A model generated the notes under the pieces. It ran no database searches and was not told the DNA's origin. It was given only the letters and a program-made list of their open reading frames with translations. A program made the position numbers and the translations under genes. From an uncultured Clostridia bacterium (GTDB lineage Bacteria; Bacillota; Clostridia; Christensenellales; Borkfalkiaceae), in the NCBI GenBank assembly GCA_947624215.1, contig CANQJJ010000006.1, positions 3,754 to 67,753 on the forward strand: 64,000 nt of DNA, given 5' to 3'. Positions 3,163-48,752 of the stretch are shown here, one piece after another (position 1 is the first letter of the stretch; each line of letters starts with the position of its first letter).

Positions 3163-4051
3163 ATTGTCCTTCGAGGAGGCGCATGGCTTGGCTGAAAATC
3201 TCATACCATGCCGCCGTGTGGATGATCTTTTGCTTCACACAGTTGGCCTCCATGAGTTCCCGCTTCGTCTTTTGGCTCAGCTCCTCCCAATTCTCCTTGG
3301 GAATGATGTATGTCGCATTGCCGTAGACGGCGCATTCCAGAACACAGTAATTCTTGAACACATAGGCATAATACCCGTTGAATCCGTTGACGCCCTCCAC
3401 GATCCGCTCCGCCGTGTATTGCTCCACGAAGGCGAGGCGGTCCGCATCGAATGTGTCGGGATTTTTGCCCTGCGAGCGGAGTTGCTCTTTGAGATGTTCA
3501 CTCGGGCGTGCGCCGGGCGGAAGCATCTTCCAATGGCATCTCTGGCGGACATGCCCCACCCCTTCGAGGTCTCCGTTGAAAATGTAGCAGTAGCCGTAAA
3601 TCTCCAAAAAGAGGTTGACTGCCTCATGGAGGTGCTTATTTCTGACCTCCGCCGTCAGAACGGCCATCACATACAAACTCCCCTGCGGATCGGCCGCCAA
3701 GACCAACTCGATCTCCGCGGGCGGGACTTCTACCTTCGGATAACAGGTGCGGTAGACGTCTATCGCGGCGGGATAGGCCTCCTCGTTCCCGTAGGGGCGG
3801 GTCCAAACGGTGGAGACGTAGCGGTATTCCTTCTCCTGCGTCTTGTCGGCATAGGAGGCGCCGTAGGCATTTCTCGTGCAGGCGGGGCCGAACGCGGCGG
3901 ATGGGAGCACGGCGTCGCCGCATTCTTTGAGCCCGACGCGGAGGTGCTCGCCGGCCGTGACGGGGACGCCGATGTTGACCGTTCCGGCGTCATACCCCTT
4001 CGGCAATCTGAGGGCCCCGATCCGCGTCTTTCTGATACAAAAACTCCCCAT
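3161..4051 (-). CDS. Hypothetical cytoplasmic protein (296 aa), no recognisable domain
   Basis: ORF 3161..4069(-). The ATG at 4051 (MGSFCIRK...) has GAGG 7 nt upstream, and a GTG at 4069 is the alternative start. No signal peptide or TM segment. It is the last gene before the terminator. Confidence 0.6.
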   Translation of the reverse strand: MGSFCIRKTRIGALRLPKGYDAGTVNIGVPVTAGEHLRVGLKECGDAVLPSAAFGPACTRNAYGASYADKTQEKEYRYVSTVWTRPYGNEEAYPAAIDVYRTCYPKVEVPPAEIELVLAADPQGSLYVMAVLTAEVRNKHLHEAVNLFLEIYGYCYIFNGDLEGVGHVRQRCHWKMLPPGARPSEHLKEQLRSQGKNPDTFDADRLAFVEQYTAERIVEGVNGFNGYYAYVFKNYCVLECAVYGNATYIIPKENWEELSQKTKRELMEANCVKQKIIHTAAWYEIFSQAMRLLEGQ

Positions 4052-4083
4052 CGCTGGACCTCGGGACACGGAATGGCGGATGA

Positions 4084-7000
4084 TCAGTCCGCCTGCTCCG
4101 TCTCCTCTCCGTCACCGCTCTCGCTCTGAGAAGGGGCGGCAGACTCGATCACCGTCGCGACATTGGTCTCGGAGTCGATGGTGACGGTGAAGACGCGGCT
4201 CCCCGCCGTGAGGGTATAGGCGCCCGTCGCGGCGTCGTATTGGCAATCCTTCTCCTCAAAGAGATAGGTCCCGCTGCCGTTGTAGTAGAGCACAATGCCT
4301 TTATCGTCGTATTCCACATAGCCCTGCCCGTCTTGGGTATAGGCGACCTTCAATTCGCGCAACGTGACGGTCACGGAGACAAACGGCTCGAGCTCACCCA
4401 CCGTATCATCGGCGTCCTCGGGCGTTCTCTGCGCAAAGACGATGCTATAAAGTTTGGTCGTGAGGATCTTGTCCGTCTCCTCCTCCCTCGTCCTCTCGAA
4501 GTAGTAGACCGTTCCGTTGTAGATGTAAACTTCATCGTAGGCGATCTCCTGCCCGTCCTTGCTCAGGGCAAACGTCCAATAGCCGCCGGCGGAGAGGTTG
4601 ATTCGCTCCGTGGAGAGCACGCGCTCTGCCGTGACGGTGTAGCCGTCCGCTTCTAACGTTTCCGTGCGGGTGAAGGCATCGACCCTGTATCCAAACAAGC
4701 CGAGATAGGAGTAAAACGTGTTATCGGGAGAGAAGTGGAGGTTGTAGGTGAAGCCGTCGCTGCCCGTGCAACTGACCGAATATACCCCGCCCTCGGTCGT
4801 GTAGCCGACATTCTCGAAGGAGATCAGTTCGCCCTTGCTATCGACAAAGCCCGAATCGAGACCGAATACGCCCGTTGCCTGCGGCGTGCCCGCGGTGCCC
4901 GTATCGTCGAACTCGGTGACGAGCGTGATGACGCCGAAGGTGTTGGGGATGACATAACCCTGCATCAAGTAGTTGAGGAGGTAGTAGAGGTAGGTGTAGG
5001 AATAGAACGTGCGCTCGGTGCGCATCGCGGTGACTTCGTATTCGCTGGCCTCGTCCTCATAGTCCCCGCGGAAGGTGACGTCGATCTCGAACACGAAGTT
5101 CTGGATCCCGACGTACATCTGATAGGTCCCGTCTTCGAGCAAGACGCGGGAGACGGTGCAATCGACCTTCTGTTCCCCGAGCCAAATGGAGGCGTCGCTG
5201 TCTGTGAATTCCGCACTGCCCGTGGGCGAGAATTCGAGCTGCCCGAGCGAGAGCATTTGATTATCCGTCGTGGGAACGGGATACTTCGCCTTGCTCTCCT
5301 CCTTGCGCGTGAAGAGCAGTTTCATGCTCGAACTGCGATAATACTTCTTCCCCTCGATCTCCTTTTCGTCGGTGAAGCGGCCGAAGAAGTCCTTCTCCAC
5401 GAATCCGTATTTGTTGGCGGCGGGGTCGTCATCATCCCTGAGATAGAGGAGCACATCGCCGTCCTCGTCCACGTTGTAGTAGTAGCGCGTCTCGCCGTCC
5501 ATTATCATGAAGCCGTAGCTCGTGAAGAGCAGCGCGGCGAAATCCTCGGTATAATACGCCCTCTCCGTGAATTTGATAGGATTTGCGGTGCGCTTCTGCC
5601 TGTCGTAGAGATAGATGCAGGCGTCGGAACCCGCGCTGTTGACGTAGTAGAGCATGGTATCGGTGACGAGGGTATAGTTCCCCGTCTCGATGGTCCCGTC
5701 TTCGTTGTATTTCGTCGCATTGCCGCGGTTGTCGAGCACGAGGACAGACCAGTCCTCCTCGTTGACATAGCTCATGACGATCTCGTCGTACAGGGCATAG
5801 AATGCGTTGTATTCGGTGGAGGAGATCGTGATGGTGCCCACCCAACCGACGAGGCTGTGGGGCTGTCCGTCGAGGGTATAGGTCAGGCGGTAGTTGCCGT
5901 CTTCCAGCTTTTCATAGGTGCCGTTCTCGAAGAGGGTCACATCTTCGCTGCTGCTCATGCCGCTGAGATGGCCGTATCCGTCGAAGTGGAAGGCAAGCTC
6001 GCCGATGCTCCTGTTGTTGACATAGAAGTAGGAGCCGTATACCTCGTCGCGGACGGTGAAGGAGTTCCCGCTCTTGAGGTCGAAGTAGTAGAGCCTGTTG
6101 TCCGAGGCGATCATCTGTATGACATTTTCCCCGCTGACGGCATAGATGCCGCTGAGGGCCGTGCCGGCGGCGTCGGTGTAGCTTGCGAGGAAACTGAACC
6201 CGTCGAGGATCAAGGTGCCCGCGTCGGAGGTGTAGGTCCCGTTTGTCTCCTCGTTGAACTTTGCAAAGTATGCGGTGCTGCCGTCGGCGCTGACGATGGC
6301 GAAGCGGAAAGACGTCCCGTCCGTGGCCGTGAACTGATAGACGGTGAGGCCGAATTCGGTGGGCTTTCCGGTATCGGTATAGGTGCCCTCGTGTTCCACC
6401 GTCGTGCTTCCCTCGTCGCCCGTCGTCGTGACCGCATACACGGCCCCGCCTTTGCCGTTGAAGGTGAGCCTCTCATTGGAGGAGACGTTCCCGTTGGCGA
6501 GCAAGACGTTGAGGCTTCCGACAAACCCCGTAAGCAGGGTGAACGTGGGCGTCGTCTCATCGTCGTGCAGTTCGAAGTAGTATGCCTCCTGCGCGACGGC
6601 GTTGTAGAGCGAGGTGATGCCGTTGGAAGTCGTTAAGACGCCCGTGATCGGCTCACCGTCCGCAGGCGTGTAGACCCCGAAGCCGCGGACCGTGACCAAG
6701 GTGGACCCGTCCGCAGCCGTGTAGCGCACATCGTATTTGTCTGTGCCCGCCTCGGTGGTCATCGAATACCAATAGACGACGGAATAGGCGCTGCCCGACG
6801 AGGAGATCACGAGGTCGGTGGAGAAGACGAACGCCTTGACGGAGGCGACGTCGAAGGGTTGCGAGACGAGCACGGCGTCTTCATTGACGTCCGTCACCGT
6901 AAAGACGTAGAGCCCCTCTTCCGTCCCCTCGGTCACATTGCCGTAGAGCACAGGGACGTAACCCGTGGCGGAATACCCGTAGACGGTGGCCTTGCCCTCC

Positions 7001-41522: not shown

Positions 41523-44500
41523 TCAGGCCTGCAGTTCCTCGGCGTTCTTGGCGAGATAGGCCGCAAATTCCCTTTCATACTGGACGAAACGGATCGCGAA
41601 ATTTTTCAGATCTGCATCGCTATCCCAAATCGCATTGCCTTCCTCCGTCGGAAGCACCCTGGAGAACATGAAGCGAAATCCGTGGAGCTGTTCGAGCAAG
41701 GCGGCCTTCTCGTCATCGGTCTCGGTATCGAATTTGGTGAAATCCCACTTCGTCCCGTCTTTGCCGTCGATCTTGCATTCTCCGATTTGATCGTAGAGCG
41801 CTTGGCCTGCCTGTTTGATGACGTCTTTGAGCGCGGTCGCGACGGTCTTTTCCGTTTCGCCTTTGATGAGTTCATTGTCCAGCTCGGTGAGAGCGGTGAC
41901 TTTTTTGTCAAGTGCTGTTTGTTCGGCTTCTGCGAGCCAAGTCGGCTTCAAATCGGACACCCACGTATTTCCCCACGCCATCGTGGTACCATTGTACAGA
42001 TTGGACGTCCAAAAATCGTTGCCGTTGTACAAGGCGTAAGCGGCGGAGAGCTTCTTCATTGTTTTAAGAAGGTCTTCGATCTTCGCCTCTTTGCCCTGCT
42101 CGATCAGCTTTTCCAACTCGCCTTTGACCGTTTCGTACTCCGCCGTCGCCTCGTCGATGTTCTTTTCATAGATCGTTGCGACATAGTCTTGATAGTTCGT
42201 GACGAGCTTCTGATTCTTTGCGGTGAGTTTGTCGTAGGCCGGCTTGAAGTCTTTTACGATCTCGGTGAGCGCTTCGGTGAGGTCGTCGTGCGTCGTCGCG
42301 GTTTCATATTTCGCCTTGCTCGCCGCGATCTTGTCAATCAGCTGCAGTACAAGCGGATTCTCGTGCGTATCGCGGGCGGTCTCGTATGCCGTGATGCGGG
42401 TCTCCCCGATGTAGGTTTTCATTCCGACGCTGTCTTTGACGGCGGGGATGTCGACGCCGAGATCATATTGGTGGGACGTATCGGCTTTGTCGTACAGGCT
42501 GTTGATCGCATCCCAATTTTCGAATCCCTTGTAGTCGTCATCTTCGGGCAGCAGCGCTTTGAACGCCTCCGCGCGCGCAAGGTACAGCTCATAGATGACG
42601 TGCAGCTTGGAATAGGTTTCGCCGTTATACGATGTATCCGCCATATAGGAGGCGTTGGAGACGAGCGTCTGCACGTTGGCGGGGAACGCATCGAACTCCT
42701 CTTTGAGGGCGTCTACCGCCGGAATGTATTCTTCGGTGAGGGCAACGTTCTCGATGTACGGTTGAAGTTTTTTCGCAAAGGCGTCGGCCGTCTCGTTGTC
42801 TTTTGCGTTCTGTGCGAGCAGCGCGTCTGCCGTCTCTTTGCAAGCCGAAAGGGCGGTTTGCTGTTCGGGCGTAAGGGGATCCCGATCGGTGAAGGTCAGC
42901 GCGAGGAGACGTCTTTCGGAATAATCCTCATTATCGTCATACTGGGGAATGCCTTTGATCGCAAAGTCGAACATCACTTTGCCGTCGTCGTTCGTGCCGA
43001 GGAAGAACTCAAGATTGGTGATTTGGGCGCCGATCATACTCTGAATGAGCGCGCCGGCAATGGGGCCCATCAAGTCGCCGGCAGATTGCGCGACATAGTC
43101 TGCCGCCGTTTGGACAAGTTGTCCGTATGCCGCATTCACGGCCTCCACAATGGGAGCCCCCAACGCGAAGAGGACGCCGTTTGCCTTCTTTTCAAAACGA
43201 AACTCGGAGAGCAACATTGCGGCCCCGTTTGCGGGAAGCGCGGGCATTTGCACGGTTTTGAGGTCTATCTGCGTGACGAAGAGGGGATCTTGTTCCATGT
43301 TGTTGAGCGCCAGCGTCAAAACGCCGTCGCCCGCGTAGTAGACGTCGAGGCTGTTCAGAGCGGGACCGACAAACGGGGGCAAACTTCCCGCGGGTGCAAA
43401 TCCACCGACCATCTGCAAAATGATGGAGGCGGGCGTAAGGCCGAGGTGCAGGTGCCCGAGCGCGATCGCGTAGTTGTCTGCCCACAGGGCGGCAGGGTTG
43501 AGGCGAAGCTCAAGATCGCCCGCGAACGAACCCATCAGCATCTGAGAGAGGGGCAGGCCGATTTCGATGTCGAAACCGATCGCCTCGCCCGTTCTCTCTG
43601 CGGGCGTACTGTCGAGGGCGGCGGAAAGACCCGTGATGGTCTCCTTGCCCTCCGCCGTCGCCGTGGCGAGTTCGAGTTTGAGGCCGTCGAACGTGAGGTC
43701 GAGGAGGGAGGGAAGGAAGTCGCCGAGCGTCGTCTTGAGGCTCTCGAGGAGACCCGCATAGGCCGCGTTGAGCTTTTCGAGGGCGGCGGCTTTGAGGGTG
43801 ACGGTGTAGCCCGCCTCCGTCTTTTCAAAGGTGACGAACGCATTCAAAGTCTCTTTGAGCTGTTCGGGCTGAAGGGCGTCTCCCTGCGGAAGACGGTCTT
43901 TGAGGTCAATGGGGTAGCTCAGGACCTTGCTCGTCGCCGTCTCCGTCTTGTTCTCGAGCGTGAGAAGCAGCACGCCGTCTCCCACATAGCGGAGGGAGAG
44001 CGCGTTTGCAAGGCCCGAGAGAAGGGGGATCTCGGAGAGGCCGAGGTCGAGGCGGAGCGTGAAGGCATTGAGATAGTCGCCGCTCGCAAGCCCGGCCTGT
44101 TTGAGGGCGAGCGAAAGGTTGCCTTGGAGCGTCTTTACGCCTTCCGCAACGCCGAGCTTCACGGAGACGGGAAGGGCGAGCTCGCTCTTTTCATCGAGCG
44201 TGTTGCCGAACGCGGAGAGCATCTGCATGGCGGGATCTTGCTCCGTGACCTGTTCGATCTCCGAGGGCGTCGAGCCGATCATGCTGTTGAACGCGTCAAC
44301 GTCGGGGATCGCGACGGCTTCGTTGACCGAAGAATAGGTGCAGGTGATGTTCTGCTCAACGCTCATGTTGAACACCTTTTTGGCGTCGTAGGAGCACGAA
44401 GAGGTGTAGGAGACGGGCGTCCAATCCTTTTTGACGGTGAGGTGGATGTCCACGTCGGAGTAGGCGGGCAGATTGTCGAGGGAGCCGTATGCCTTGGACT

Positions 44501-45128
44501 GCAAACGCAACGCCGCGGTGGCAGATTCCGTCGCCGCGCCGCTCTCGAGAGATTGGTCCCCCGCGAGGCGCAGATAGTATGTAAAGGTATCCCCCTCCGT
44601 GCTCTCCAAAGTCACGTAGCGGAGGGTCTTGGCGTTGATGATGTAGCCGCCGAGGGTGACGTCGTCCGCCGTGAACCCGTATACCTTTATATAATCTTGC
44701 TTTTCGGCGACCTTCATGTCTCCCTCGAAGGCGTCGCGGTAGACGACTTTACCGTTCTTGGAGAAGGATTGGTGCTTCATCTTGACGAGAACGGAATCGG
44801 AGGAGGCCTCGTTGAGGTAGTCGTCGCCGTTCTTATAGGTGGTGTTGTGGATGTCTTGCTCATACCCCGCAAGGCTGGCGACCGCCGAGCCCTCCGAGAC
44901 GATCTTGTAGCTTTGCAGCTCGCTCTGCTTCTGCAAGAAGGCATAGACCGCGTTTTCGGGCGTGAGCTGGTCGGGCGATTTGTTCGTTTCGAGCGTCGTC
45001 GAACTGCCGCTCTCGACCGTGGGCGTTTCCCCCTTGGGAAGGTCGAGGGTGCATGCCCCCACCCCCGCCGCCGTAGCAAGAATACAGCCGCCGGCCAGGA
45101 AGGTCATCAGAACTTTTGATATTCTCAT
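41523..45128 (-). CDS. Large lipoprotein (1201 aa), function unknown
   Basis: Lipobox signal MRISKVLMTFLAGGCILATAAGVGAC. Long uninterrupted ORF with its own promoter and terminator. I recognised no domain. Confidence 0.8.
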   Translation of the reverse strand: MRISKVLMTFLAGGCILATAAGVGACTLDLPKGETPTVESGSSTTLETNKSPDQLTPENAVYAFLQKQSELQSYKIVSEGSAVASLAGYEQDIHNTTYKNGDDYLNEASSDSVLVKMKHQSFSKNGKVVYRDAFEGDMKVAEKQDYIKVYGFTADDVTLGGYIINAKTLRYVTLESTEGDTFTYYLRLAGDQSLESGAATESATAALRLQSKAYGSLDNLPAYSDVDIHLTVKKDWTPVSYTSSCSYDAKKVFNMSVEQNITCTYSSVNEAVAIPDVDAFNSMIGSTPSEIEQVTEQDPAMQMLSAFGNTLDEKSELALPVSVKLGVAEGVKTLQGNLSLALKQAGLASGDYLNAFTLRLDLGLSEIPLLSGLANALSLRYVGDGVLLLTLENKTETATSKVLSYPIDLKDRLPQGDALQPEQLKETLNAFVTFEKTEAGYTVTLKAAALEKLNAAYAGLLESLKTTLGDFLPSLLDLTFDGLKLELATATAEGKETITGLSAALDSTPAERTGEAIGFDIEIGLPLSQMLMGSFAGDLELRLNPAALWADNYAIALGHLHLGLTPASIILQMVGGFAPAGSLPPFVGPALNSLDVYYAGDGVLTLALNNMEQDPLFVTQIDLKTVQMPALPANGAAMLLSEFRFEKKANGVLFALGAPIVEAVNAAYGQLVQTAADYVAQSAGDLMGPIAGALIQSMIGAQITNLEFFLGTNDDGKVMFDFAIKGIPQYDDNEDYSERRLLALTFTDRDPLTPEQQTALSACKETADALLAQNAKDNETADAFAKKLQPYIENVALTEEYIPAVDALKEEFDAFPANVQTLVSNASYMADTSYNGETYSKLHVIYELYLARAEAFKALLPEDDDYKGFENWDAINSLYDKADTSHQYDLGVDIPAVKDSVGMKTYIGETRITAYETARDTHENPLVLQLIDKIAASKAKYETATTHDDLTEALTEIVKDFKPAYDKLTAKNQKLVTNYQDYVATIYEKNIDEATAEYETVKGELEKLIEQGKEAKIEDLLKTMKKLSAAYALYNGNDFWTSNLYNGTTMAWGNTWVSDLKPTWLAEAEQTALDKKVTALTELDNELIKGETEKTVATALKDVIKQAGQALYDQIGECKIDGKDGTKWDFTKFDTETDDEKAALLEQLHGFRFMFSRVLPTEEGNAIWDSDADLKNFAIRFVQYEREFAAYLAKNAEELQA

Positions 45129-45303: not shown

Positions 45304-45344
45304 TTGCCAAACGCGCGCGCATGTGATATAATGTGTGATATAAT
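45304..45344 (+). promoter_or_regulatory. Promoter, TTGCCA-17 nt-TGaTATAAT, with a second GTGATATAAT copy 12 nt downstream
   Basis: ttgcca at 45304-45309 and tgatataat ending at 45332. A duplicate gtgatataat lies at 45335-45344. It is divergent from the lipoprotein promoter and about 85-95 nt upstream of the ATG at 45427. Confidence 0.7.
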
Positions 45345-45426
45345 GGAAAAAACGGGGGAGCGGAGCCCGTTCGCGCCTTAGCGGACCCCCATTCCCACCC
45401 ATGCGGGCAGGATACAGGAGAAAAAA

Positions 45427-47463
45427 ATGTCTTTGTGGAAAGAAAATATATGCAGCAATTGCGGGGCGATGGTGGACCCGCGGGAGGCCGTGGACGGCGT
45501 GCTCAAATGCCGTCACTGCGGCATGCCTCTCACTTTCCCCAAGCCCGATTCCAAGGTGTTGTCTTTTTTACAACAGGGCGAGCACGACTTGGACAGCCGT
45601 GATTTCGAACGCGCCTATGCGGCGTATTCCAAGGCCGCCGAACTCGACCCTACCGAGCCCGAGGCCTACTTCGGCATGGCACTTGCGACCTTCAAGGTGC
45701 AATACCTCAAAGACGAGGTGCACGGGTGTCTGCAACCCATCTGCTATGAGATCTCGGAGGACAAATTTACCGAGGATCCCAACTACAAAAAGGCCCTCGA
45801 ATTTGCCACGAGTGAGCAAAAAGAGGTATACCATGTCCGCGGTAAGGCCATCGACAGCATCCGCGAGGAGTTCTATGAATTTGAAAAGAGCGGGCTCTGG
45901 TACGATTGTTTCCTGTGTGCCAAAGTGAGCGAATCCGACGGGAGCCATACGGCCGACTGCGAGCGCGCGAACGACATTTACCACTACCTCAAAGACAACG
46001 GCTACAAGCCATTCTTCTCGGAGCGGGAGGTGAAGGGGCGCGTGGGGAGCGCCTACGAGGCCTTCATTCTGTACGCGCTCTATAAGTCGGAGTGCATGCT
46101 CATCGTGTGCTCGGACGAGGCGTATTTGCAGACCAAGTGGGTGAAGAACGAGTATCTCCGCTTTTTGAAGATGATGAAGGACGAAGACAAGGAGCGGGAC
46201 GCGCTGACCTTTGTGTTCTGCGGCAAGCCCATTGAAAAACTCCCTTTTGGCACGAGTAAAAAAATCCAAGGCATTGATTTTTCCAAAGAGCGTGACGCGT
46301 ACCCGTTGATCACAAAGTATGTCGAGGAGCACACCCCCGCAGCCCGTGCGAAGCGGCTTGCCATGGAGCAGGCCCGTGTCGCCGAGGAGAAACGCAGACA
46401 GGAGGAGGATGAGCGCCGCCGCGAGGAGGATCAAAAGCGCGAGGAAGAATTGAGGATGTTGCGAGAGAAAGTCGCACAAATGGAAACCGAGCGTTCCCCT
46501 GCGGCCCTGCTCGCCATGCTGCGCCAAGCCGAAGAGGAGGAGCGGAAGTGCAAGGAAGAGGAACTCAGGCAAAAACCGTGGCTGGCCTCCGATTACCCCA
46601 CGCTCGAAAACTACGACAAAGATCTCTTTGAGATCGACGGGGCAACACTTGTCAAGTTTAAGCAGAAAGAGTTCCAAGGCGAAGTCAAGATCCCCCTCGG
46701 TGTAACGTCGATTGGGGATTCTGCGTTCTCGGGTTGCAGCGGACTGACGGGAGACTTGAAAATCCCTGACAGCGTGACCTCAATTGGGGAGTGTGCGTTT
46801 AGGAATTGCTGCGGGCTTACGAGTGTGGCGATAGGCAGTAGCGTAACCTCGATTGGAGATAATGCGTTCTGGGGTTGCAGTGGGCTGAAGAGCATCGCGA
46901 TTCCCACGAGCGTGACCTCAATCGGAGGTAATGCTTTTTCTCATTGCAGTGGACTGACAAGTATCACCATCCCCAAAAGCGTAACCTCGATTGGGAATGA
47001 CGCATTCGATGATTGCCCTAGCTTAACGAGTATCACCATTCCCGCCGGCGTGACCTCGATTGGAGATCACGCGTTCTGGGGTTGCAGAAGCTTGACGAGT
47101 ATCACCATCCCCGACAGCGTGACCTCAATTGGAGATTGCGCGTTCTACGGTTGCAGTGGACTGACGAGTATCACCATTCCGGACAGCGTGACCTCAATTG
47201 GAGAATTGGCGTTCAGTGATTGCAGTGGTCTGACAAGCATCACCATTCCGGACAGCGTGACCTCAATTGGAGAATCCGCATTCTACGGTTGCAGTGGACT
47301 GACGAGTATCACCATTCCGGACAGCGTGACCTCAATTGGAGAGTGGGCATTCGATGATTGTCCGAATCTTACTATCTATTGCGAAGCTGAAAGCCAGCCC
47401 GAAGGATGGGATGAATATTGGAATCATTCTAATTGCCCTGTCGTTTGGGGATATAAAGGATAA
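45427..47463 (+). CDS. Cytoplasmic Zn-ribbon / TPR-like / TIR domain / coiled-coil / BspA-type LRR protein (678 aa)
   Basis: CAGGAG RBS 6 nt upstream. Zn-ribbon CSNC..(x16)..CRHC. TIR-like core from YDCFLCAKVSE to IVCSDEAYLQTKWVKNEYLRF (Glu242). E/R/K-rich coiled coil at about aa 303-385. Ten 23-aa repeats of the form VTSIGxxAFxxCSGLTSITIPDS. No signal peptide or TM segment. Confidence 0.85.
   Translation: MSLWKENICSNCGAMVDPREAVDGVLKCRHCGMPLTFPKPDSKVLSFLQQGEHDLDSRDFERAYAAYSKAAELDPTEPEAYFGMALATFKVQYLKDEVHGCLQPICYEISEDKFTEDPNYKKALEFATSEQKEVYHVRGKAIDSIREEFYEFEKSGLWYDCFLCAKVSESDGSHTADCERANDIYHYLKDNGYKPFFSEREVKGRVGSAYEAFILYALYKSECMLIVCSDEAYLQTKWVKNEYLRFLKMMKDEDKERDALTFVFCGKPIEKLPFGTSKKIQGIDFSKERDAYPLITKYVEEHTPAARAKRLAMEQARVAEEKRRQEEDERRREEDQKREEELRMLREKVAQMETERSPAALLAMLRQAEEEERKCKEEELRQKPWLASDYPTLENYDKDLFEIDGATLVKFKQKEFQGEVKIPLGVTSIGDSAFSGCSGLTGDLKIPDSVTSIGECAFRNCCGLTSVAIGSSVTSIGDNAFWGCSGLKSIAIPTSVTSIGGNAFSHCSGLTSITIPKSVTSIGNDAFDDCPSLTSITIPAGVTSIGDHAFWGCRSLTSITIPDSVTSIGDCAFYGCSGLTSITIPDSVTSIGELAFSDCSGLTSITIPDSVTSIGESAFYGCSGLTSITIPDSVTSIGEWAFDDCPNLTIYCEAESQPEGWDEYWNHSNCPVVWGYKG
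46702..47394 (+). repeat. Ten tandem 69-bp (one 72-bp) coding repeats forming the LRR array; the last five are near-identical at the DNA level
   Basis: Examples: gtgacctcaattggaga(ttgc|attg|atcc|gtgg)gc(g|a)ttc....tgcagtgg(a|t)ctgac(g|a)ag(t|c)atcaccattccggacagc. The repeats start at 46702 and then fall into register every 69 nt from 46774. Confidence 0.9.
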
Positions 47464-47517
47464 TTGGCAAGCAGACGGAAGACGGGCATACCATGTCTGA
47501 GGGGGAGGCTCACGGAG

Positions 47518-48459
47518 ATGGAGAATATGGATGAAAATTCAGAAGCGATCGTGCTCTTTTGCAGCCATCTCGCAGGCGAGGGTGCCAAGCCGCTCGGGCC
47601 CAAGGAGTGGAGCGATCTCTCCCATTTGCTCGCGGAGAAAAATCTCTCCCCCGCCGCCCTGCTCCGCCAAACGGAGGCAGAACTTCGCGACATGCTCGGC
47701 TTTGACAGTGAGTTTGCCTCCCGCCTCAGGCGGCTTGCAGACAGAAAAGCGCGCCTTGCCGCCGAGCTCGAACAGCGCCGTGGCATGGGTATTCATCTCA
47801 TCACCGCCGCCGATGAAAAGTTTCCCGCCAAGCTCAAAGAGGGGCTGGGCAAAACGTGTCCCCCGCTTCTCTACTGTGCGGGGGATCTGAGCCTGCTCGG
47901 GCATGCCGCCGCGGGCTATGTCGGCTCGCGGAGGGCGGAGGAGGAGGCCTGCGCATTCGCGCGGAGAGCCGTGGAGAAGACGGCCGCGCGGGGATACGGC
48001 GTCGTATCGGGCGGGGCGCGGGGCATCGACAGCGTCTCGGCACAAAGAGCGCTCGAGCTCGGCTCCTTCGCCATCGAATATCTTGCAGACGATTTGACAA
48101 AGTGCTTGCAGAGCGGCCGCACGGAGCGGGCAGTGGAGGAGGGCAGGCTGCTCTTGCTCACGGCCGTCGCCCCCGGGGAGCCCTTCCACATCCGCAATGC
48201 CTTGATACGCAACAAGTTCATCTACACGCAGTCGGAGGGGACTGTCGTCGTGCGGGCCGATTTCCATACGGGCGGGACCTGGAGGGGCGCTACGGAGGCC
48301 CTTTTCAGCGGACGGTGCACGGTGTTTTGCTGGGAAAATGCCAACTACCCCGGCAACCTCGGGCTCATCGCAAAGGGTGCCGTCCCCATCGGAGAGGGGT
48401 GGGACGGAGACCTCGCTTCCCCGCCCAAAAAGGCTGTTCAGACGAGCCTGTTCGATTGA
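47518..48459 (+). CDS. Divergent DprA/Smf-family (SLOG superfamily) protein (313 aa)
   Basis: The ATG at 47518 has GGGGGAGG 9 nt upstream (the ORF track started at a TTG at 47464). N-terminal helical SAM/HhH-like region. The DprA Rossmann core aligns by eye to B. subtilis Smf: ...PPLLYCAGDLSLL, YVGSRRA, VVSGGARGIDSVSAQRALE, LLLLTAVAPGEPF.IRN..IRNKFI and VVVRA....GGTW. Confidence 0.75.
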   Translation: MENMDENSEAIVLFCSHLAGEGAKPLGPKEWSDLSHLLAEKNLSPAALLRQTEAELRDMLGFDSEFASRLRRLADRKARLAAELEQRRGMGIHLITAADEKFPAKLKEGLGKTCPPLLYCAGDLSLLGHAAAGYVGSRRAEEEACAFARRAVEKTAARGYGVVSGGARGIDSVSAQRALELGSFAIEYLADDLTKCLQSGRTERAVEEGRLLLLTAVAPGEPFHIRNALIRNKFIYTQSEGTVVVRADFHTGGTWRGATEALFSGRCTVFCWENANYPGNLGLIAKGAVPIGEGWDGDLASPPKKAVQTSLFD

Positions 48460-48597: not shown

Positions 48598-48706
48598 TGC
48601 ACGGGCTTGGGGACCAAGGGGGCACGCTTTGCACGGGCTCGGGTGCCAAAGGAGCGCTCACACGGGCTTGGGGACCAAGGGGGCACGCATGCACGGGCTT
48701 GGGCGC
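48598..48706. repeat. About 3.5 tandem copies of a ~31-bp GC-rich unit, GCACGGGCTTGGGGACCAAGGGGGCACGC
   Basis: Copies at 48598-48627, 48630-48657 (degenerate), 48661-48689 and 48691-48706 (partial). Each contains a cttgg-gga-ccaag mini-hairpin. The region is noncoding and lies between the DprA-like gene and the terminator. Confidence 0.85.
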
Positions 48707-48724: not shown

Positions 48725-48752
48725 GAAAAAACCCGCGGGAGGCGGGTTTTTC
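48725..48752. terminator. Bidirectional intrinsic terminator between the convergent DprA-like and Opp-operon transcripts
   Basis: gaaaaaa-acccgc-gggag-gcgggt-ttttt: stem 48731-48736 with 48742-48747, flanked by an A-run and a T-run. Confidence 0.75.

Follow-up and report, generated by a model that had tools for sequence, protein, structure and literature searches.

Does a gene for a cytoplasmic Zn-ribbon/TIR/coiled-coil/leucine-rich-repeat (LRR) protein, followed on the same strand by a gene for a divergent DprA-like protein, form an undescribed two-gene immune module? The question is raised by a locus in a 64,000-nucleotide stretch of DNA from an uncultured Clostridia bacterium (GenBank assembly GCA_947624215.1, contig CANQJJ010000006.1, positions 3,754 to 67,753; the whole stretch is hereafter called the window), for which a preliminary description had proposed such a module from the sequence alone. 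The two genes are located as follows, in window positions.

45427-47463, + strand: gene 1, an open reading frame (ORF) of 678 aa encoding a Zn ribbon, TPR-like helices, a beta-hairpin, a TIR domain, a coiled coil and ten BspA-type LRRs
47518-48459, + strand: gene 2, an ORF of 313 aa encoding a PsyrA-family DprA-like protein without a PsyrT partner, composed of an N-terminal helical domain and a DprA Rossmann domain

The proposal of an undescribed two-gene immune module was not supported, because no recurrent adjacency was found in 36 TIR-family loci or 83 PsyrA loci. We instead favor, with a probability of roughly 0.6, a reading in which gene 1 is a stand-alone TIR-LRR sensor/NADase candidate and gene 2 a co-expressed orphan PsyrA antitoxin, the locus being a composite unit in which two conflict-type genes act independently of each other. 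Their adjacency looks like an isolated juxtaposition, not like a new immune system made of two genes.

Identity and partners of gene 2

The PsyrTA system, or RqlHI, consists of a toxin that bears a phosphoribosyltransferase (PRTase) domain and a DprA-like antitoxin, PsyrA (10.1101/2022.05.11.491447; PMC4670107). In a PADLOC run on the pair, the PsyrA profile (PDLC03927) matched gene 2 over residues 3-295 (E 1.5e-76, 256 bits; model positions 2-297 of 398), and the ShosA profile scored far below it (78 bits, E 1.8e-22). Pfam assigned DNA_processg_A (PF02481, E 2e-31) along with a weak LDcluster4 match. An AlphaFold2 (AF2) model with a predicted local distance difference test score (pLDDT) of 93.4 returned the DprA fold in Foldseek, with S. 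pneumoniae DprA (3uqz) as the top match and ShosA (8zva, E 4.8e-16) as the second, both at about 4e-16, and LOG and MoCo-carrier structures further down the list. By its full-length profile match and its predicted DprA-like fold, gene 2 is classified as a PsyrA-family protein. The earlier view of gene 2 as a divergent DprA-like protein of the SLOG superfamily, related to defense antitoxins, was therefore upheld. The motif changes that had been remarked on, ALIRNKFI and GGTW, are real but match the PsyrA family consensus (AMMRNRxIY and GGTWxGA) and are not peculiar to gene 2. Gene 2 retains the GGAxGxD and RN motifs; of the 27 positions with a conservation of at least 95% among PsyrT-paired relatives, it keeps 26.

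The family to which gene 2 belongs is thus a described one, and it is overwhelmingly paired with PsyrT. Out of 572 PsyrA-like matches in genomes, we fetched the 80 best, from GTDB species representatives; 76 of these had usable upstream DNA. PsyrT lay directly upstream in 66 of these informative loci and remnants of it in 3, leaving 7 orphans, and it was present in all seven viral PsyrA loci. A TIR gene was found upstream of PsyrA in 0 of the 76 genomic and 0 of the 7 viral loci. The relatives closest to gene 2, at 60%, 59% and 51% identity, show the same association, as does one at 42%: the 60%-identical protein (P0002, loci L001/L015) and the 42%-identical one (P0048) are encoded directly after a gene whose product of about 690 aa combines DEAD, Helicase_C and PRTase domains, which in L001 is PsyrT by PADLOC (E 6e-222), and short contigs carrying the 59% and 51% relatives end in the C-terminus of a PsyrT PRTase. 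The relative at 55% identity is an orphan and has a promoter of its own. In a neighbor-joining tree, the window protein was sister to a PsyrT-paired protein. A tblastn search with two PsyrT proteins found no PsyrT anywhere in the window.

Orphan PsyrA proteins keep 26-27 of the 27 core positions, which argues that the orphan state is viable and selected. From these sequence comparisons, gene 2 is best described as an intact antitoxin without its former toxin; about 9% of loci show this state. Pfam scans beside the orphans (upstream in 7/7, downstream in 6/7) found a secreted Flg_new+LRR_5 protein, thrB, DUF499, IetA and others, and no TIR gene. Because orphan PsyrA is kept without PsyrT in about one in ten loci, on unrelated transcripts, this DprA-like antitoxin seems to serve a function that does not depend on the toxin.

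Several of the orphans have distinctive neighbors. In L031 (5106-6930) the orphan gene overlaps thrB, and in L037 and L039 (~3576-6882) it adjoins an IetA defense ATPase. An AAA ATPase also occurs near a TIR-family gene (L113), but it is only 23% identical to that beside the orphans of L037 and L039, and the L037 ATPase is IetA, which belongs to a different defense system. In L019 (4191-6942) the orphan starts 11 nt after the gene for the secreted Flg_new+LRR_5 protein; a phmmer match (4e-25) had made this locus a candidate second case of TIR-LRR plus PsyrA, which was rejected since Pfam and the sequence identify the upstream product as that secreted protein, without a TIR domain.

Comparison with PsyrTA shows both likeness and difference. 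Gene 2 has the PsyrA match and the DprA-like fold, it follows a larger gene within one transcript, and the genes most closely related to it are genuine neighbors of PsyrT. The upstream gene here, however, encodes a TIR-LRR protein and not the RecQ-like helicase plus PRTase of PsyrT, so that the two-gene composition of PsyrTA is not present, and a 54-nt gap with its own ribosome-binding site (RBS) separates the genes, whereas canonical pairs abut or overlap codons. E. coli RqlI has a C-terminal helix-turn-helix domain that gene 2 (~315 aa) lacks, the short form being common to PsyrT-paired clostridial relatives. ShosTA resembles the locus in the DprA-like fold of its antitoxin, ShosA being the second-best Foldseek match, but its profile matches far more weakly than that of PsyrA, and a ShosT PRTase gene is lacking.

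Architecture and family of gene 1

The features of gene 1 are listed below with the evidence for each.

45451-45519, + strand: Zn ribbon, C9, C12 ... C28, C31 (family conservation; weak Pfam Zn_ribbon_3)
45898-46326, + strand: TIR domain, about residues 158-300 (Pfam TIR_2; AF2 model and Foldseek)
46150-46152, + strand: codon of Glu242, the catalytic-Glu equivalent in W238-V-K-N-E242 (alignment to RUN1)
46336-46581, + strand: E/R/K-rich coiled-coil linker, about residues 304-385 (long AF2 helix at 304-339; sequence)
46684-47376, + strand: ten BspA-type LRR units, LRR_5 (Pfam, sequence)

Pfam detected a weak Zn ribbon (Zn_ribbon_3, residues 6-35), TPR_11 (59-90), TIR_2 (176-288, E 1.5e-11) and LRR_5/BspA repeats (E 6.5e-83). 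The AF2 model of residues 1-340 had a pLDDT of 92.4, and the segment 158-300 was recognized by Foldseek as a TIR fold, with matches to MyD88, SARM1, TIR-STING and SPARTA (TM-scores by target 0.65-0.69) and a probability of 1.00 for the MyD88 and SARM1 TIRs. The domain composition given in the preliminary description (Zn ribbon, TIR, coiled coil and ten LRRs) was thereby borne out by Pfam, AF2 and Foldseek.

The assignment of Glu242 as a catalytic-type residue likewise held. When the entire N-terminal module was used as a profile against the PDB, all matches were to TPRs and LRRs, and a TIR-only profile was needed to recover the plant TIR protein RUN1. This TIR-only family profile aligned best to the RUN1 TIR, placing WVKNE242Y over WCLDE100L, in which E100 is catalytic; the RUN1 E100A mutant entry (7s2z) has Ala in exactly the Glu242 column. 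Across 61 diverse family representatives, neither W238 nor E242 varies. With its predicted fold and the W-x-x-x-E catalytic Glu in the alphaC region, the gene 1 TIR is a putative enzymatic TIR of the NADase type. In the same 61 representatives, C12, C28 and C31 of the Zn ribbon are invariant and C9 is at least 90% conserved. Public gene calls place the start at M15 (664 aa, P0176), which loses the first CxxC of the ribbon; we favor the start at 45427, because the family keeps C9 and C12 and an AGGAG lies 6 nt upstream.

The LRR tail contains the VTSIG motif ten times with a period of about 23 residues and ends in the usual C-terminal cap. At the DNA level, a 69-nt tandem unit is repeated 7.3 times at 46840-47342 within this region, with 78% matches. 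As had been judged by eye, the LRR half is less GC-rich (GC 0.51) than its surroundings: GC at third codon positions (GC3) is 0.57 there, against 0.74 in the N-terminal half and 0.83-0.87 in the housekeeping neighbors. The low GC3 and the tandem array together suggest, as a sequence signature, that the tail was recently exchanged or that its repeats recently expanded. Gene 1 has no signal peptide or transmembrane (TM) segment (top 19-residue hydropathy 1.2). Three of the four other large window proteins checked start with lipoprotein-type signal peptides, two of these being LRR proteins; the earlier contrast between a cytoplasmic gene 1 product and secreted or lipoprotein LRR neighbors thus stands for its first half, and for those two LRR proteins in its second. 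In PADLOC, gene 1 had no match at E<=0.1.

Gene 1 resembles the enzymatic TIRs (RUN1 and other plant TNLs, SARM1, ThsB, SPARTA) in its TIR fold and in the W-x-x-x-E that aligns with RUN1 E100, activity being predicted from the sequence, and it shares the sensor/effector logic of TIR plus LRR with TNLs and TLRs. It differs from them in having neither an NB-ARC/STAND NTPase nor a TM segment, in the bacterial BspA type of its LRRs, and in the N-terminal Zn-ribbon/TPR module and coiled coil that are specific to its family. Its ten canonical LRR_5 repeats with a C-terminal cap are those of BspA-type surface proteins; such proteins, including the others in the window, are secreted or lipoproteins, whereas gene 1 has a cytoplasmic TIR head.

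Homologues of gene 1 have a strongly conserved head of about 300 residues (41-60% identity) and a comparable coiled-coil linker, and their tails vary among LRR_5, TPR, L7/L12-C-like and TM segments. An exhaustive HMMER search for this TIR-head family yielded 4274 clusters at 50% identity with E<=1e-30. Throughout the best 150 clusters the module begins at residues 1-6, with protein lengths of 438-3167 aa, and among 61 sampled members TIR_2 occurs in 61 and LRR_5 in 34. Literature searches on bacterial TIR plus BspA-LRR proteins found nothing relevant, and a search for phage and plasmid carriage found the family absent from IMG/VR and PLSDB. The Zn-ribbon/TPR/TIR head family with exchangeable tails is apparently very large and undescribed.

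Neighborhoods were fetched for 36 loci of this family of thousands, with at least 1 kb of downstream sequence in 20 and at least 1 kb of upstream sequence in 26. A PsyrA-family ORF was found in 0 of these 36 loci, even at E<=1, while positive controls scored 1e-119 to 1e-141, and Pfam annotation of the homologues revealed no fusion of TIR-family and PsyrA-family domains in either family. Clearly, the TIR-head family functions without a PsyrA partner. The preliminary description had itself named a lack of adjacency beyond chance between homologues of the two genes as grounds for giving up the module, and this is what the two surveys found, with PsyrA in none of the 36 TIR-family loci and a TIR gene in none of the 83 PsyrA loci.

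Instead, the closest TIR-LRR homologues stand alone within housekeeping operons, between purM and purN in two metagenome-assembled genomes and between miaB and mutS in a third:

L007, 6001-7764: operon-inserted TIR-LRR homologue
L134, 4375-5931: operon-inserted TIR-LRR homologue
L008, 6001-7539: operon-inserted TIR-LRR homologue

More distant TIR-head members form tandem arrays of two to four paralogues with different tails (L114, 1428-8378; L116; L117; L120; L122). Gene 1 thus points to a very large uncharacterized family of bacterial TIR proteins that are cytoplasmic and carry exchangeable tails, in many cases BspA LRRs; the family keeps the NADase catalytic Glu, forms tandem arrays and inserts into housekeeping operons. 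The Zn-ribbon/TPR/TIR/coiled-coil/BspA-LRR family may represent an undescribed single-gene "TIR-LRR" immune receptor family of bacteria, and the family of gene 1 is a larger lead than the pair.

Some individual loci of the family have further features. The L114 array is flanked by HEPN (pEK499_p136) and ORF6N/Rha genes, and one of its members weakly matches the PADLOC candidate PDC-S66 (E 1.2e-5). The TIR-LRR gene of L134 is immediately preceded by another LRR_5 gene. On two independent metagenome contigs, the TIR-family gene is closely preceded by one for an SPFH/Band-7 protein whose C-terminus bears a double Zn ribbon:

L095, 3566-4624: SPFH/Band-7 locus
L100, 3847-4884: SPFH/Band-7 locus

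Probable shared transcription unit and readings of the pair

The signals around the two genes are as follows.

45304-45344, + strand: sigma-70-type promoter, with -35 TTGCCA at 45304-45309, a 17-nt spacer and an extended -10 TGaTATAAT at 45324-45332 (consensus scan and sequence)
45416-45420, + strand: gene 1 RBS AGGAG, 6 nt 5′ of the ATG (read from sequence)
47501-47508, + strand: gene 2 RBS GGGGGAGG, 9 nt 5′ of the ATG, within the 54-nt intergenic gap (sequence)
48598-48706, + strand: three direct repeats of ~28-30 nt in the 3′ untranslated region (UTR) (sequence)
48726-48751, both strands: bidirectional intrinsic terminator, an A run, CCCGC-GGGAG-GCGGG and a T run (sequence and predicted RNA hairpin)

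The promoter at 45304-45332 scored 11 of 12 consensus matches with the TG present, and a second TGaTATAAT copy at 45336-45344 repeats the -10 element 12 nt downstream, in agreement with the earlier report of a near-consensus promoter with a duplicated -10. The 54-nt gap and its RBS were also as described, and a scan found no promoter-like or terminator-like site within the gap. The bidirectional terminator after the pair was seen both in the sequence and in the RNA fold, yet it was not listed by the consensus scan; it separates the two-gene unit from the convergent opp operon. Genes 1 and 2 are probably co-transcribed.

In the reading that we favor, the LRR tail of gene 1 would bind a ligand, which may be a protein of phage or other foreign origin, assembly through the coiled coil would bring TIR domains together, and Glu242 would cleave NAD+ or make an ADP-ribose (ADPR)-derived product, so that one protein may serve as both sensor and effector. 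Gene 2 would descend from a PsyrT-PsyrA pair from which PsyrT was lost, and would now occupy the 3′ end of the TIR-LRR transcript; alone, it may have a DprA-like function linked to single-stranded DNA (ssDNA) and RecA, or confer immunity against incoming PsyrT-type PRTase toxins. Domains, folds, conservation of the catalytic site, operon anatomy and partner statistics are observed, and from them NADase activity, ligand sensing, a defense role and the task of the orphan antitoxin are inferred. If this reading is true, the two genes make up no new system and should not seed a defense-system family; and if the gene 1 family proves to consist of single-protein sensor/effectors, it would be a bacterial receptor that combines TIR and LRRs but has no NTPase module.

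Several observations weigh against treating the two genes as independent. The pair is found in four of the four metagenome assemblies that carry gene 2, and the genes share a promoter, strand and terminator and are only 54 nt apart. They preserve the toxin-then-antitoxin order of PsyrTA. GC3 is alike in the TIR head (0.74) and gene 2 (0.76), both below the housekeeping range of 0.83-0.87, which fits joint acquisition. In addition, the defense role of the TIR family is itself a proposal: the window protein is without a PADLOC match, and its neighborhood is one of housekeeping genes.

The main rival, which we regard as unlikely but as the foremost of the alternatives, explains these observations by functional re-partnering. 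The PsyrT gene of a PsyrTA locus would have been replaced by the TIR-LRR gene, and the PsyrA-like protein would restrain the TIR enzyme or counter its effect until infection released it. On this account, of which we are doubtful, the locus would be a recently formed working toxin-antitoxin or defense unit, in which a TIR-LRR NADase has taken the place of a PRTase toxin as the partner of a PsyrA-type antitoxin; were it true, DprA-like antitoxins could buffer an unrelated class of nucleotide-targeting toxin. Besides the retained gene order, the single promoter and terminator and the similar GC3, it can draw on the strong RBS of gene 2 and its 26 of 27 retained core residues, and other systems use TIR NADases as toxic effectors. 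Shared promoter and terminator, spacing, order, GC3 and co-presence, however, fit a captured orphan antitoxin, as in L031 and L019, equally well. The pairing recurs in neither survey (0/36 and 0/83), and over 30 TIR-protein homologues lack such a partner, which indicates that the TIR family needs no antitoxin. RqlI (PsyrA) co-immunoprecipitates with RqlH only if the PRTase domain is present (PMC4670107), and ShosA counteracts ShosT via ssDNA and RecA without binding the toxin (PMC11961720, PMC12961424). Neither mechanism predicts neutralization of a TIR enzyme; the DprA-like antitoxins known so far work either on the PRTase domain or by way of RecA/ssDNA (PMC4670107, PMC12961424), and neither offers an evident path to a TIR.

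Two further explanations concern the role of gene 2. That it is simply the organism's DprA, the recombination mediator of transformation, beside an unrelated gene is improbable, even though its DNA_processg_A match, the top Foldseek match to S. pneumoniae DprA and the kept GGAxGxD and RN motifs would agree with it. The TIGR00732 dprA equivalog scores only 77.4 bits against a cutoff of 191.15 (and against 256 bits for PsyrA), and PRK10736 scores 52.5 against 495. Both the winged helix (PF17782) and the helix-hairpin-helix domain (HhH, PF14520) carried by canonical relatives are missing, and gene 2 nests among PsyrT-paired relatives, its nearest ones being PsyrT antitoxins; canonical DprA was accordingly rejected as an identity for gene 2. 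No second DprA was found in the 64-kb window. Least credible of all is signaling of the Thoeris kind, to which the preliminary description had drawn an analogy, whereby the TIR would make a cyclic-ADPR-type signal after LRR sensing and the gene 2 protein would be its receptor. ThsA is described as sensing TIR products through its SLOG domain (PMC11204291). Part of the analogy holds: gene 1 has a TIR with a catalytic Glu, and gene 2 has a SLOG-superfamily fold according to its LOG and MoCo-carrier Foldseek matches and the weak LDcluster4 match. But ThsA fuses its sensor (SLOG or Macro) to an effector (SIR2 or TM), whereas the 313 aa of gene 2 comprise only the N-terminal helical domain and the DprA Rossmann domain of that superfamily, and no effector domain. 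PADLOC found no ThsA or ThsB match and did not recognize gene 1 as a ThsB-type TIR, although the TIR fold itself is present; gene 2 is nested among PsyrT-paired antitoxins, and its adjacency to gene 1 is not conserved. A stand-alone TIR-LRR candidate with a captured orphan antitoxin is therefore the reading that we retain.

Surroundings of the locus

An expected defense-island location did not hold. The neighbors are housekeeping and envelope genes, namely a V-type ATPase operon, a 1201-aa lipoprotein and an Opp transporter, and the locus is outside any defense island. The claim that genes 1 and 2 are the only plus-strand genes in the 64 kb is consistent with our scans, in that, among the ORFs checked, large plus-strand ones elsewhere are without Pfam matches and their minus-strand counterparts have them.

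A look for an empty site or strain variation, by exact-protein look-ups of OppF and an 87-aa neighbor, returned only contigs that carry the pair. Three low-coverage metagenome contigs with the pair (L011, L013, L014) end at most ~120 nt upstream of gene 1 or inside gene 1, and a fourth (L012) ends ~200 nt upstream of gene 2. The gene directly upstream on the opposite strand (41523-45128, -) encodes the 1201-aa predicted lipoprotein, which has no Pfam match at E<=0.001. It is linked to the pair (window ~45310-45430) in the 71-kb record only and in no other assembly.

Rfam searches and folding of the UTRs gave nothing significant, and the repeat region at 48598-48706 showed no significant RNA fold (z -0.07). 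These repeats (CACGGGCTTGGGGACCAAGGGGGCACGC), which lie between the gene 2 stop and the terminator, comprise two exact copies and one at 75%, and they occur nowhere else in the window. At the edge of the window, a gene for a DUF488 protein of the active N3 subclade (146-790, -) adjoins a gene for a DuOB (dual OB-fold) protein (1207-2646, -), which may together be a separate conflict or nucleic-acid-related gene pair.

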